Under the pieces are notes generated by a model. That model searched no databases, was not told the origin of the DNA, and was given only the letters and a program-made list of their open reading frames with translations. From Eledone cirrhosa (lineage: Eukaryota), in contig OZ024754.1 of NCBI GenBank assembly GCA_964016885.1, positions 4,402,001-4,466,000 on the forward strand: DNA of 64,000 bases, read 5' to 3'. A program made the translations under genes and the position numbers. Shown one piece after another: positions 5,207 to 61,982 of the stretch; the stretch's first letter is position 1; every line of letters starts with the position of its first letter.

Positions 5207-5297
5207 AAAGAGTAAGGACCCCGACGGCTGAGCTCCAGCCGTTTCGACAGCTAGATCCAAGTACCTTGGTGGGTTATGGTCCACCTCATATCTTACC
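5207..5297. mobile_element. Family A (hammerhead-bearing, putative Penelope-like pLTR) fragment: inverted half-ribozyme joined to distal tail
   Basis: GACCCCGACGGCTGAGCTCCAGCCGTTTCGACAGCTAG and AGTACCTTGGTGGGTTATGGTCCA match the copies at 12.3, 34.2 and 58.8 kb; abuts (TA)n. Confidence 0.65.
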
Positions 5298-6028
5298 ATA
5301 TATATATATATATATACATATATATATATATATATATAAATATATACATATATACATATATATATACATATATATAAATATATACATATATATATACATA
5401 TATATAAATATATACATATATACATATATATATACATATATATATATATAAATATATACATATATATATACATATATATATACATATACATATATACATA
5501 TATATATATATATATATACATATACATATACATATATACATATATATATATATATATATACATATACATATACATATATATACATATACATATATATATA
5601 CATATATATATATACATATATACATATATATATACATATATATATATACATATATACATATACATATATACATATATATATACATATATATATATAAATA
5701 TATACATATATATATACATATATACATACATATATATATATATATATACATATATATATACATATATACATATATATATACATATATATATATATACATA
5801 TATATACATATATACATATATATACATATATATACATATATACATATATATATACATATATACATATATATATACATATATACATATATACATATATATA
5901 TACATATATACATATATATCTACATATATACATATATATATACATATACATATATATATACATATATATATACATATATATATATATACATATATATCTA
6001 CATATATACATATACATATATATATATA
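5298..6028. repeat. (TA)n/(TACA)n compound microsatellite
   Basis: Direct inspection. Confidence 0.95.
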
Positions 6029-6262
6029 TTAATAAAAGGAATTCCAACTTTGTCTGATTTACTCGTTTTATTTACAATCCTTTAAAATTTATAATGGTAT
6101 TAGAATGAAATAGTATGGTAGAATATTAAATTAATTGAACACTTCAATTAATACTTAACATTTAATATTCTACCATACTATTTCATTCTAATACCATTAT
6201 AAATTTTAAAGGATTGTAAATAAAACGAGTAAATCAGACAAAGTTGGAATTCCTTTTATTAA
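6029..6262. repeat. Near-perfect inverted repeat, ~103-bp arms with a 28-bp spacer
   Basis: 6029-6131 is the reverse complement of 6160-6262; preceded by (TA)n. Confidence 0.92.
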
Positions 6263-7257
6263 TATAATCTTCTATACACAATCATACACACCCGTGTATA
6301 TTTCTCTCTCTCTCTCTCTCTCTCTCTCTCTCTCTCTCTCTCTCTCTCTCTCTCTCTATATATATATATATATATATATATATATATATATATATATATA
6401 TATATATATATATATATATATATATATATATTATGGAATACTGTTGGCTTCTTGCTTACAACAATTTCTATACTTTTCATTAATATATATATATATATAT
6501 ATATATATATATATATATATATATATATATCCACATATAGATATAGGATTATTAGTATTATTATTTTCGTTATATTCTTCCCTTTTATAGGTTTTCAGCT
6601 AAATCCACTTACCCTCAGGGATCTTCTTGTAAGATAAATTATCATATTTATTACTACTACTACTACTACTACTACTACTACTACTACTACTACTACCACT
6701 ACTAGTGCGGTGTATTCTTATAATGAGTATTTATTACAATTACTCATCCCTTTGGTGATAACCCCCTTATTTTTACTCAATGTAACCCCCACGTAGTGCT
6801 CCTTTTGTCCCTCATTCCCTCCACCCAATTACTTAGGCCCTTGTGGCCAATAAAACAAACCTTTATTTCTACAAGAGAAAGAAAGAAGAGGGTACTAGAG
6901 GTAAAAGACGACATCACAAAAAAAAACACAAAAAAAACAAGGACAAGGCAGGCCAGTTGGGTGGATATAGAAATAAAAGGGGGTGGCATTGTAAACACTA
7001 TTGACCAGTGTCCAGTTTCTCTGTTGACCACGCCTGTATAGCTGGTGTTAATTTTCTGTTAGCGGGAGTTTAGACAGTTGACACGCCATTTCCTTGCAGT
7101 CGGCAACAATGCAGCTGACATCGGCAGAAGGAGGAACACGCATTCATATATACATGCATATATAATGCATGTATCATACACATACACAAATATGCACTGG
7201 TGCGCATATGTCTTTATGCACCTCGTCCCTCTTTCACTATATATCTATATATATATA

Positions 7258-7436
7258 TAATTGTTTCTACTTTAGGCACAAGGCCAGCAAATACCCAGTT
7301 CATTACTGGTACTTTATTTTATCGACCCCGTAAGGATGAAAGGCAAAGTCAACCTCGGCGGGATTTGAACTCAGATCGTAAAGGGACGTAACTATGCTGG
7401 AAAGCATGGCGTCCGACCCTCTACCGATACTGCCAA
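7258..7436 (-). mobile_element. tRNA-derived SINE family B
   Basis: A-box-like TGGCAGTATCGG and B box GAGTTCAAATCCC on the minus strand; body CTTTGCCTTTCATCCTTACGGGGTCGATAAAATAAAGTACCAGT repeated more than 10 times in the window. Confidence 0.88.
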
Positions 7437-7750
7437 TATATATATATATATATATATATATGTATGTATATTTAGGTTTAGTCTTACACCACCAAACAAC
7501 TCCATGTGTATATGTTGTTGTATTTAATGTATGTATATACTTATGGATATACATCGTTGTGTGGTGATTATATATATATATACAACGATGTATATCCATA
7601 ACTATATATATACATTAATACAACAATATATACACATGGAGTTGTTTGGTGGTGTAACACTAAACCTAAATATACATACATATATATATATATACAAACA
7701 TTTATATGTACACACACACACACATATATATATATATATATATATATATA

Positions 7751-58425: not shown

Positions 58426-58620
58426 ATAAATTTCTCACTCTTACTTCGGCCTCCAAGTGGGAGTTGTCAAGGTGGGTCTCAGTAAGAATGAAGAAGGGGA
58501 TGTGAAATGGATGGTTACCAACCCAATCCTCAATGAATTGGATCTTCCATTTCTGTGCATTGATGGATGGGCTGATACCTTGTGGATTGAGTAAGAATGT
58601 GGAGGCTAGTGTGGTGGCTG
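58426..58620 (-). mobile_element. LINE APE endonuclease N-terminal fragment
   Basis: LLNPQGISPS...KIQFIED...FFILTETHLDNSHLEAEVRV (N..G and TETHL motifs). Confidence 0.6.
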
Positions 58621-58756
58621 GTTTTGACTGTTGCAGGGGGCTTGTTTTGTGATTGTGTGTTAGTGACAGCAAGGATGGTGTTGGGTGATGGCTAAAATGT
58701 TTTTCTCTATATCTTTTGCCAGGTTCATGGTTAAAAAAGAAAGATTTATATATATA

Positions 58757-58902
58757 TCAGACAGGGTGTGGTAAAAACGAGCTAGACCATAACCCACCAG
58801 AGTACTCGATACTTGGGGGTAGTAGAGTGGGTAATATTAAAAGATTCAGGACCCCGACGGCTGAGCTCCGGCCTTTTCGACAGCTAGAACTAGCTGTCGA
58901 AA
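58757..58902 (-). mobile_element. Family A element ending in the stem II hairpin
   Basis: TTTCGACAGCTAG-aa-CTAGCTGTCGAAA followed by (TA)n. Confidence 0.78.
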
Positions 58903-59698
58903 TATATATATATATATATATATATATATATATACCCCCAAAGGCTGTTCTTATGTTATACATAGCATTTGCGCAGTCCATTCCTTTCATCGTCAATATT
59001 TATTTCTAGATCTACATGTAGTCCTTTAAAATTCATATGTATTAAAATCTTGGTTGTCGTCTTTACTTCGTTTTATCCTATTTTCTTTATTCACTTATTA
59101 AAGTACCAGTAATGTACTGGGTAATTGCTGGCCTTGTGCCAAAAGTAGAAAAAATTATTATTATTATTTGTTTTAACATTTGAATAAATATCAGTTTATA
59201 TATGCGAGTAGATAAATGTCAATAAAAACACATTGTGAAAACCGAATATATGTATGTATGTATGTATGTATGTATGTATGTATGTATGTATGTATGTATG
59301 TATGTATGTATGTATGTATGTATGTAGGGTATTCTCCACTATAAACACATAGCTTTATGTAGTCTTCCATTTTATAAGGAAAGCTTTGAGGCCTTGTAGC
59401 TCTTTTTATCTTGATCTTCATTTAATACTAAAACCAGAATTGTCAGCTGTTTATTACAAAATGTCACATACGTTTAGTAGATATGGTGAGAAATTTAGAA
59501 AAAATAAATTTGTATCAGTACAGAATTTGTATCAGTACAGAAACAGTACAGAAGTTAGACGAATCTTAGAGAAATATGCATACAAAACACATTTATATAT
59601 ATATAAATATGACTTTTACGCATTTTTCCTTTGAGTTAGAAAGAACCTGTCCATGTCTCTCACATCTTTATATATATATATATATATATATATATTTA

Positions 59699-59885
59699 AC
59701 GAAGGAGGTGTGGTAAGGAACCAGATGGATCATAACGCACCAGAGTACTCAATACTTAGGGTAGTAGAGTGGGTAATAGGAAAAAGTTTAACCTCGACGG
59801 CAGAGCTCGAGCCGTTTCGATGGTTATTTCCAGAAATAGACGTCGAAACGGCTTGAGCTCTGCCGTCGGGGTTAAACTTTTTCCA
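59699..59885 (-). mobile_element. Family A fold-back element
   Basis: GGAAAAAGTTTAACCTCGACGGCAGAGCTC...GAGCTCTGCCGTCGGGGTTAAACTTTTTCC; (TA)n flanks. Confidence 0.82.
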
Positions 59886-61982
59886 TATATATATATATAT
59901 ATATATATCGGAATGGATTCAGTAAGAGACTTGTTAGACCATTACTCACCAAAGTACTCGTTACTTGGGTAGTAGAGTATGGTTATAAATATACATTATA
60001 TATATATATATATATATATATATATATATAACCATACTCTACTATCCCAAGTGTCGAGTATATATATATATATATATATATATATATATATATATATATA
60101 ATCGAATCGAAAAATTCCGAGCAAACTTTATGAAGAGCTTTAGTTAAAAATAATCAAATTGGTTTTCAGCGAGAATCGAAACTAGATTCTTTTCCCTCCC
60201 TTAAGATCTCTCAATAAAACACTCCAAACTATGCACAGTTTCATAATATTGAATATACTCTATATGACAAGATTTCTCCAAGTTTTTTCCTCACGTTTTC
60301 TTCCATTTTCACGCAATACATTTTAAATATAGACACACCTCTCTACCGGTTCTGACATTCTCCCCTCCCATAATAATTATTTTCATCATTAGCAAACGGC
60401 AATTAATTTGGTTGAAGGGGAAAGTCGATATAATCGACCCCTGTATATGAATCGTTCTTTATTTGATCGATCCGCTGAAGGATGAAAGGCAAAGTTTACA
60501 TCGGTAAAGCCTGCAAACCTATTTCTATGTAGAAAAGGATATTGTTTCCCCTTCTCACCATATTCAGACTGCGTGACACTCACACACTCTTTCTCTGTGT
60601 GAATGTATATAAACATATATACAGTAATAATAATAAATGTGGAAACTAAAATCCAAAGAGGGCTCGATAAGGATAAATATATATCAAATATATAAGAACC
60701 CTAGAGCACGTTAAATTTAGTATTAAAAACTCACATTAATCCCCTATAATTTAATGAGATCAAGGAATAGATTCTGGGCTTTTTATAAATCAACATATAG
60801 AGAGACGTACACACAGAGATATGTGTTCAATCATAGGGGATCAAAAATCACCAGAGTTACGAACATATTACCTACGGAAGGAATGGTGAATATAAATCAA
60901 TAAAAAAAATATATTAAAGTGTACTAACCATTCAATTATAACAATAACACCCGGGCATGCTCAAATAAGAGAATGTTTCGCTATATATATATATATATAC
61001 GAGTTCATGTGTGCAGTGAAAGTATTAACCACAAGAAAGAGCTATATATATATATATATTTGTGTGTGTGTAGAGAGAGAGAGAGAGATGTATGGATTTT
61101 AGTTAACACACCCTTTTCAGCGTTGCTTTGTAAATAGTGTATTGAAACCACATGCTTGCTTTTGGAGAGTTTCTATTTTCAATTTGTGACCACAGGAAGG
61201 TCAAACAGATAGGGTTCAGTAGGCTTTTAACGCAATATCAAGCTTTAGACAATAATTTCAGACTATCTCCCTTTTCATGTCCCACCTAGAATAACTTGCG
61301 GTTTAACAACATTTCAGGTCAGGCGAAACATGATATAAAAAATACTCACGGACTACGTTTAGCTTACATCCAAGTGTACGGTTTCTAGTAATTCATTAAT
61401 TTGCATAGCTAATGATGGTAAATTTATGCAAATTTGATCAGATTGGTTTAAACATATCGGGGTCTAACTTCTGTAACGAATTAATTGGGCTAGAATCACT
61501 AAAGTGTCGGATGAAACGCTTCGATATTTGTTCCGGCACTCAGTGCTCTGGTTCAAATCTAACCGACGTTAATCTTACCTTTCCCCATTTTGAGGGTTGA
61601 TAAATAAAGTATCAAACCAGATTATTAGTGGCGAATCATTGGAATTGGTAAACACTATGACGGGAGCCATGGTTATACAATACAATACATTCATGTATAC
61701 ATCGCTATTTCAGAGCACCAATACTAATATCTAATGTTTGCTGGACCGGCAGCCGTTCTGTTTATTCAGCTTTTATATATTACAGGAATTCTATAAGAAT
61801 CCAGCTTCTATAAATCTTGGCAGAAGCAAGAGAGTGAGTGGTTTTAATAAACGCTAACAAGCTAGAAACAGCCATCGAACACTCTTCTTTGCTTTTGCCG
61901 AGAAAAAGTAAGTGACATAGTCACTACTTTAAAACTCATAGAGAATGGTCTTCAAAATGTTTTTAATTAAACAAACAGTATA

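Follow-up and report, generated by a model that had tools for sequence, protein, structure and literature searches.

A 64,000-nucleotide stretch of Eledone cirrhosa DNA (contig OZ024754.1, positions 4,402,001 to 4,466,000), called "the window" in the following, contains many short repeats that carry hammerhead ribozyme motifs, are often folded back onto themselves, and are located in or beside tracts of the dinucleotide TA. Are these (TA)n tracts the target of the repeats, a product of the repeats, or only the background of an AT-rich eukaryotic DNA with 33.5% GC? The evidence makes it probable that the repeats represent the 3' ends, truncated and in many cases folded back, of several families of Penelope-like elements (PLEs), at least one of them of the Neptune/Nematis type, and that they were inserted into (TA)n, likely by GIY-YIG nicking and target-primed reverse transcription.

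The connection to the PLEs comes from the family at 30.6 and 57.5 kb, family C, which is composed of the following parts:

30916..31284, minus strand: end of a GIY-YIG open reading frame (ORF) with its stop codon, a CxxC linker remnant and the core VVY..YIGET
30423..30915, minus strand: pseudo-long terminal repeat (pLTR) that continues as far as ORF nt 22 (site 1) and abuts a C-spacer TA array
[quoted passage not shown]
31285..31381, plus strand: inverted arm of the 30.4-kb copy, ORF start plus a 59-nt tail to site 2 (+81)
57244..57727, plus strand: solo pLTR with hammerhead 57477-57511 and ORF start 57646-57726, TA on both sides
56981..57053, minus strand: fragment of a subfamily that stops at site 2, with 87% identity and four of eight changed codons synonymous
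56665..56836, minus strand: subfamily fragment with site 1 as its end and MILPKYN as its ORF start

On the minus strand at 30.4 kb, the GIY-YIG ORF end, the stop codon and the hammerhead repeat follow each other contiguously. The ORF fragment matched the Pfam GIY-YIG model (E = 5.5e-5) and is homologous to reverse transcriptase-endonuclease (RT-EN) proteins with a C-terminal endonuclease (EN). It is 51% identical to residues 933 to 1041 of P0008 (E = 5e-35), an RT-EN protein of 1,092 amino acids that carries a YVDD motif and belongs to a cluster including a jellyfish (Sanderia) gene model; a PDB search gave weak matches to intron endonucleases alone (E = 0.02 to 0.07). A CX2-5CxxC motif upstream of the GIY-YIG core was present in 16 of the 18 proteins that could be assessed among the top 50 matches and in all four aligned homologs. 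The window copy of this linker has kept the CxxC half and lost the first Cys at the inversion junction. The 3' end of family C encodes a 27-residue peptide that is identical in 14 of 27 positions (52%) to residues 1 to 26 of P0008 (pairwise E = 2e-5; E = 0.004 against a set of 194 proteins), and two further subfamilies in the window keep the frame of the ORF start. Both full copies possess an inverted 5'-truncated arm and a one-sided tail: the inverted arm 31285-31381 is 100% identical to 57631-57726, and the inverted arm of the solo pLTR (57245-57315) ends at site 1.

Family C ends at ORF nucleotide +22 (site 1, three ends) or +81 (site 2, three ends). Because both ends are inside the ORF start, (TA)n is not an encoded tail of this family; the presence of such a tail was the finding that, according to the preliminary description of this DNA, would have spoken against targeting of TA repeats by GIY-YIG endonucleases. 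This targeting is now supported by a GIY-YIG ORF end that is physically joined to one of the hammerhead families. As judged by sequence, family C is the 3' end of a Neptune/Nematis-type PLE, with a C-terminal GIY-YIG domain followed by a pLTR with a minimal hammerhead.

The association with TA was evaluated with a catalog made by self-BLAST of the window, which contained 31 PLE-type copies and 22 copies of short interspersed nuclear elements (SINEs), with one 5S-derived piece among the latter. The headline number refers to the 22 copies of the four hammerhead families A, B (the 8.1/24.2-kb family), C and D; the nine copies of families E, F, G, H and I, which are without a whole hammerhead, stand outside this number. 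A copy was in contact with TA when at least five TA units, (TA)≥5, were found within 10 nt of its end. Perfect (TA)≥5 runs, 388 in number, cover 10% of the bases in the window. A random insertion point, placed into the window after removal of the catalogued elements, was expected to be in contact with TA on at least one side in 19% of the cases and on both sides in 13%.

Contact at one end at least was found for 19 of the 22 copies (p = 2e-11), and local null models of 1, 2 and 5 kb gave 4.4 to 5.1 expected copies instead of 19 (p ≤ 5e-6, one end). The enrichment survives control for the TA background, by random and by local placement, a control that the preliminary description had asked for. 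All 12 pieces of family A, described earlier as about 10 copies, touched TA with at least one end and 10 of them with both, as did four of four copies of family C and two of two of family B with at least one end; families A and C together were at TA in 16 of 16 cases. When the threshold was raised to (TA)≥8, 11 of 12 pieces of family A and all four of family C remained in contact, and none of the two copies of family B or of the four of family D. The location of the 8.1/24.2-kb family in (TA)n consequently stands at the lower threshold only, while that of families A and C is retained. Addition of families E to I led to 26 TA-contacted copies of 31.

The SINEs in the window behaved differently, with three of 22 copies at TA (p = 0.82 versus 19%; Fisher p = 2e-6 against the hammerhead families). 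Copies with clear target site duplications (TSDs) had been described as sitting in sequence free of microsatellites, but three contacts are the chance level, and the SINEs at 7257-7435 and 7750-7956 are flanked by TA on both sides; SINEs are neutral toward TA and not excluded from it. SINEs with clear TSDs are a selected subset because a TSD is unreadable inside pure TA. Informative TSDs of 9 to 16 nt were found for six of 22 SINEs and for none of the 31 PLE-type copies, for which the criterion is uninformative inside pure TA. The SINEs are named here only as tRNA-promoter type, with the label "MetaSINE" unconfirmed, and gene calling for tRNAs on the window gave none. A young S1 SINE (45514-45702, 98.9% identical to the 7.3-kb copy) is inserted into an S3 SINE with a 16-nt TSD (locus 45407-45809), and a 5S rRNA-derived sequence at 15757-15875 (Rfam, 80 bits), a pseudogene or the head of a 5S-SINE, enters (GT)n with its 5' end.

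How solid are the ribozyme motifs? Besides those of family C, the following features contain whole or partial hammerheads, or belong to families B and D:

8068..8270, minus strand: family B copy, hammerhead 8119-8169, score 28.7
23946..24343, minus strand: family B fold-back (the 24.0-24.3-kb palindrome), arms identical in 142 of 149 positions, hammerheads 24098-24136 (minus) and 24253-24291 (plus)
15933..16117, plus strand: family D fold-back, hammerhead 15942-15980, score 23.2, flanked by (CA)n and (TA)5
34764..34921, minus strand: family D fold-back, hammerhead 34874-34912, score 22.2, flanked by (TG)n and (TC)6(TA)7
20920..21124, plus strand: family D fold-back, flanked by degenerate TA and TATC
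12099..12129, plus strand: family D fragment within (TG)n
46486..46516, minus strand: singleton hammerhead, score 23.6, TA 160 to 235 nt off on each side
26443..26472, plus strand: degenerate hammerhead-like singleton, borderline score of 17.0, in a 99-nt TA-bounded island
27920..27948, plus strand: degenerate hammerhead-like singleton, borderline score of 18.1, in an island between two long arrays
23374..23401, plus strand: hammerhead-like motif, score 18.6, its 5' half recurring at 57742-57788 and 58379-58425 (minus)

[quoted passage not shown] At a score of at least 21, it gave eight matches at seven loci (in family B, family C, family D, and the singleton at 46.5 kb), compared to a mean of 0.04 per shuffle in 50 block shuffles. 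At a score of at least 17, there were 13 matches, compared to a null mean of 0.88; those added were 23374, 27920 and 26443, plus two likely false ones in the ORF of an RTE element and in a SINE. A stricter earlier descriptor had found one match, and another version without the extra nucleotide missed such motifs. In Rfam at the gathering score, 5S rRNA was the sole hit in the window and no hammerhead appeared, indicating that PLE remnants of this kind escape Rfam. A looser E-value scan of 23.25 to 25 kb added two weak Hammerhead_1 matches, and among the matches listed from E-value scans (150 of 440), microRNA models on simple sequence repeats (SSRs) dominated. Among the folding z-scores of single hammerheads, most were weak, with three of 13 below −2. 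Read from sequence and predicted structure, the hammerhead cores are real as motifs and folds, and self-cleavage is a prediction. On the minus strand, the two 47-nt copies at 57742-57788 and 58379-58425 stop inside hammerhead stem II, with TA or CATAT at the junction.

A landmark test, which does not need the ends of the elements, used the length of the TA-free island around each ribozyme landmark. For all 21 landmarks, this island was 322 nt compared to 984 nt (p = 1.5e-5; circular shift, 0.004), with no signal for family D or the SINEs. Six singletons, at 23.85, 24.8, 26.45, 27.9, 46.5 and 49.97 kb, had been assigned earlier to TA surroundings, and their islands are indeed TA-bounded (245 nt, p = 0.0015; circular shift, 0.005), five of six with 500 nt or less. 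As ribozymes, only the one at 46.5 kb is strong. Those at 23.85, 24.8 and 49.97 kb failed the descriptor and are partial or degenerate; the 24.8-kb singleton is just an Rfam Hammerhead_1 match with an E-value of 0.91.

Family A is the largest of these families, and its pieces reveal how the copies are built:

5204..5297, unstranded: inverted arm plus tail, internally deleted, bordering the 5298-6029 array
8958..8994, unstranded: fragment between TA tracts
9191..9295, minus strand: fold-back, site 2 left and site 1 right
12176..12290, plus strand: copy ending at site 1, its hammerhead (long stem II) degenerate but the only complete one of the family
12316..12508, plus strand: fold-back centered in the hammerhead stem II loop
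26310..26369, minus strand: 5'-truncated tail piece, TA on both sides
34176..34365, minus strand: fold-back
49789..49905, plus strand: fold-back centered near the predicted cleavage site
58757..58901, minus strand: divergent subfamily, short fold-back
59699..59884, minus strand: fold-back
59909..59996 (minus strand) and 60031..60058 (plus strand): two tail-only pieces, separated and flanked by TA

Six copies retain the 3' half of a hammerhead (GAAA, long stem III, UC, stem I), and the sole complete one (12185-12270) has two core mismatches and a score of 14.1, inside the null range. Five fold-backs have two ends in common, about 80 nt apart, the end of the short arm being site 1 and that of the long arm site 2, and the sixth at 5.2 kb matches this pattern approximately. 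Arm lengths were unequal in all 15 tabulated two-armed copies, the sites of families G, B and I being defined by one copy each. The fold center was the stem II loop in three copies of family A. Differences between arms in the last 11 nt were 0.2 within a copy and 3.2 between copies (five copies), and in the last 45 nt, 2.3 and 7.7, respectively (three copies). Since both arms have copy-specific variants in common, each inversion probably dates from the insertion of its copy and stems from a single RNA, and priming of each copy likely took place from both strands of the target. Families A, B and D all combine a hammerhead, an inverted arm and a one-sided tail, with full hammerheads in B and D. 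The tail segments of families A and D align (z up to 8 versus shuffles), which indicates that these two are related, so the families can no longer be regarded as all unrelated to each other. Fold-backs in TA without a recognizable hammerhead are located at 6030-6302, 24379-24548 and 7462-7679, the first two with a one-sided tail as in the PLE families. In addition, inserts of 29 to 84 nt are flanked by TA on both sides at 6431-6482, 56566-56615, 8007-8035, 49689-49772 and 9025-9067; those at 6.4 and 56.6 kb have both ends in common. These short inserts may be tail-only products from site 1 to site 2.

An insertion event that leads to this anatomy may have proceeded as follows. The RT-EN protein would bind its RNA near the ORF start and nick both strands of a TA tract, which would be target DNA and not part of the element RNA. 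One 3'-OH would prime at the distal site 2, and priming from the second 3'-OH would begin 59 to 80 nt upstream, at the proximal site 1. The two short cDNAs would be joined, often at the hammerhead hairpin. The product would be an inverted element that is flanked by TA on both sides and has a "tail" on just one of its arms, and since both TA flanks would remain targets, elements could accumulate in trains. At site 1, the next bases of the element match the TA flank over 3 to 5 nt in eight of 13 copies (four of six families), compared to 0 to 2 nt in the other five. On these junction sequences from a few independent families, the match hints at annealing between primer and template. A programmed insertion with two primers, in which one strand primes at the distal site, the other anneals with 3 to 5 nt in the manner of telomerase to UAU or AUAU at the proximal site, the cDNAs are joined via the ribozyme hairpin, and staggered nicks duplicate the tract, is a tentative proposal that may well be wrong. 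If true, one target would become two per insertion, and the excess of TA tracts in SSR-rich genomes would come in measurable part from PLEs.

Do the elements also make the long arrays? The preliminary description had suggested a self-reinforcing system in which insertions feed very long (TA)n arrays. One stretch of this kind is adjacent to the 30.4-kb copy of family C:

26627..30422, unstranded: two long interrupted TA arrays, 26627-27660 with T spacers and 28113-30422 with C spacers

Strong self-reinforcement, in which the very long arrays result from target duplication or from TA added by the RT with each insertion, is unlikely, although several observations would fit. TA tracts beside elements are longer than others (median of 23 versus 15 nt, p = 0.002), 43 of 122 isolated TA tracts and four of 10 long arrays border a PLE-type end, 10 tracts carry elements on both sides, and C-spacer arrays flank the 30.4-kb copy on either side. 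The summed flanks (median 54.5 nt, mean 57, 12 copies) exceed length-weighted draws from 79 unoccupied tracts, also with L^3 weighting (p = 4e-4), but long tracts are underrepresented among the unoccupied ones, and a tract shared by two elements entered the count two times. In shrimp, recent expansion of Penelope and RTE elements is associated with long (AT)n, according to passages in Yuan 2021 (PMC7878876). On the other hand, no catalogued element was found inside any of the 10 long arrays, partly by definition, since an element splits an array, and the duplication model needs an element per step. These 10 arrays comprise 6,880 nt, or 58% of the TA bases, with median perfect runs of 7 to 13 nt (217 runs with a median of 11 nt in the 2,310-nt array 28113-30422), and their regular spacers, single C or T bases or CATAC, are typical of unit amplification. 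The arms have diverged by 5 to 18%, and the tract lengths seen today are therefore probably the outcome of later slippage.

Three of the 10 arrays are tails of an RTE derivative. This nonautonomous derivative forms an 862-bp tandem unit on the minus strand at 50773-54157, the first two units of which differ in 1 of 862 nt, and shares its 5' untranslated region (UTR), ORF end and 3' end with the RTE element at 1-4361. Its (ATGT/AT)n tails make three TACA-interrupted arrays, with the last copy inverted (53289-54157); RTE tails are a separate route from retroelement to microsatellite. The RTE element contains an intact long interspersed nuclear element (LINE) ORF of 1,210 codons at 197-3829 with APE endonuclease, RT and C-terminal C2H2 fingers, followed by a 3' UTR full of microsatellites as far as its (ATGT)n tail (about 4336-4361), and is possibly a recent copy. 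Slippage or unequal exchange of interrupted units likely enlarged the multi-kilobase arrays independently of the insertions, with RTE (ATGT)n tails as the starting point of three. What is left of the feedback is its weaker form, one tract becoming two per insertion by duplication or later regrowth, which is consistent with the data and weakly supported; element trains are found at 8.9 to 9.3, 49.6 to 50.2, 56.5 to 57.8, and 59.7 to 60.1 kb. Other repeats in the window are a 37-bp minisatellite (35473-36102, 17 copies) and a 100-bp tandem repeat containing TA/GA runs (17752-18272, 5.3 copies), and another LINE fragment with a zf-RVT domain (42777-43226, E = 1e-7), followed by a TCTG-based higher-order array.

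That the elements made the (TA)n themselves, as an encoded tail or through TA that the RT added without a template, in the manner of telomerase, wherever it was primed, is very improbable. Both ends of a fold-back are 3' priming ends, which means that TA on both of its sides is no proof of targeting, and passages in Craig 2021 (PMC8557442) describe the RTs of PLEs as related to telomerase. However, an encoded tail is excluded not only by the ORF-internal ends of family C but also at site 1 of family A, where the element continues into unique sequence. Moreover, the non-priming ends of family A at 26369, 59996 and 58901 abut TA of 19, 34 and 33 nt, respectively (three of four such ends), and pieces of family D are located in (TG)n and (CA)n. 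The ends in the ORF start together with the TA-abutting non-priming ends make targeting the best reading, with untemplated TA addition on top of it as a possible contribution.

There is very little probability that (TA)n, being fragile (cruciforms, breaks) or tolerated, passively captured any retro-RNA without an endonuclease specificity. The two SINEs with TA on both sides would agree with it, and TA repeats are named as break sites in the title of a 2026 paper, but SINEs in the same window are at chance, in contrast to families A and C. Inverted chimeras are a generally known artefact at low-complexity DNA, but an origin of the fold-backs from assembly or long-read chimeras is practically negligible, since the arms are 82 to 95% identical and not 100%, and stop at the same two family-specific positions at different loci.

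Targeting of TA by PLEs has to be weighed against several observations that do not agree with it or limit its reach. Only one of the four copies of family D had (TA)≥5 (p = 0.57), contrary to its earlier placement in (TA)n; seven of its eight ends adjoin some dinucleotide repeat (CA, TG, TC or TA). Its arms are the most diverged among the hammerhead families (82 to 86% identity), and decay of old TA flanks is a possible reason for this exception. Family B dropped out at (TA)≥8, the fourth non-priming end of family A (12176, the 5' end of the 12.2-kb copy) is without TA, and the short arm of the 58.8-kb copy ends at GAAA instead of site 1. Restricted to descriptor-found loci, the landmark test gave p-values of 0.01 to 0.06 and was not significant at (TA)≥8. 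Gene conversion within hairpins could also yield the concordance of the arms. Families A, B and D and the singletons are assigned to the PLEs by their anatomy alone, and no protein link was found for these three families in the window, the translations of their 3' parts not having been searched. There is no PLE RT domain in the window, and family C is assigned to the Neptune/Nematis type as a whole. All copy ends were curated by hand in one 64-kb window.

What does this locus add? Microsatellite targeting, inverted pLTRs and one-sided tails are already published for PLEs, and the window is not a new system but clearly illustrates a known habit of PLEs, with a SINE control inside the same window. 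Its details concern a step called unresolved in passages of Craig 2021 and Frangieh 2024 (PMC11167929), the origin of inverted arms, one-sided tails and microsatellite bias, and family C contributes a named target and exact start sites (+22 and +81). For this mechanistic step, the junctions provide a useful lead, although the supplements of both papers may already show the pairing of site 1 with site 2 or the junction homology. A literature search of titles and abstract starts found no study of tract duplication by PLEs, and a search on Penelope-like, twin priming and inverted gave nothing on the PLE mechanism by title. If a comparison of filled and empty alleles showed tract duplication, this would be a mechanism for the association of transposable elements with SSRs in shrimp, and possibly in other SSR-rich genomes.

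In twin priming of L1, a second primer on the same RNA leads to a 5' inversion, with the first priming at poly(A) and a variable second site. In the window, by contrast, both sites are fixed and internal. Non-LTR retrozymes (Cervera 2020; Li 2026, bioRxiv 10.64898/2026.07.22.740005) are similar as noncoding type-I hammerhead repeats with a proposed origin from PLE pLTRs, to which passages of Li 2026 link them. They differ as head-to-tail tandems or monomers, while most window copies are without a whole ribozyme; an identity with them was rejected, since no hammerhead in the window is in a tandem unit. Naiad elements, as far as described in passages of Craig 2021, share the (TA)n preference, inverted arms, tails and a similar endonuclease, and their remnants occur in cephalopods, but they have an N-terminal EN and no canonical hammerhead. 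The C-terminal EN and the hammerhead of family C rule out that it is a Naiad. Recently active Penelope families are reported for Octopus vulgaris in the part of Bonar 2026 (PMC13282606) considered here, which contains no analysis of their targets. The repeat composition of the window is octopus-like.

With Neptune and Nematis, family C has in common the C-terminal GIY-YIG domain with the CX2-5CxxC linker, which according to the same passages of Craig 2021 marks these two clades, and a hammerhead in the pLTR. Also in common are the inverted 5'-truncated arms, the tail that is often at one end only, and the microsatellite bias, for which a role of the linker was hypothesized in Neptune with reference to Arkhipova 2006. 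The window, however, holds 3' remnants only, their clade is not fixed by an RT phylogeny, and the tails of 59 nt (family C) and about 80 nt (family A) are longer than the 30 to 40 bp described. [quoted passage not shown] In vitro, the tail of the anole PLE PAc (Poseidon of Anolis carolinensis) is defined by two neighboring internal RT start sites at the beginning of the ORF, and the PAc protein cuts and extends both strands at an AT-rich target, as stated in passages of Frangieh 2024. PAc prefers ATT instead of (TA)n, its ORF begins in stem II, whereas the ATG of family C is 135 nt after the predicted cleavage site, and its starts at about +111 to +118 nt are described there as without homology to the target, compared to sites +22 and +81 here and a proximal match of 3 to 5 nt in eight of 13 copies.

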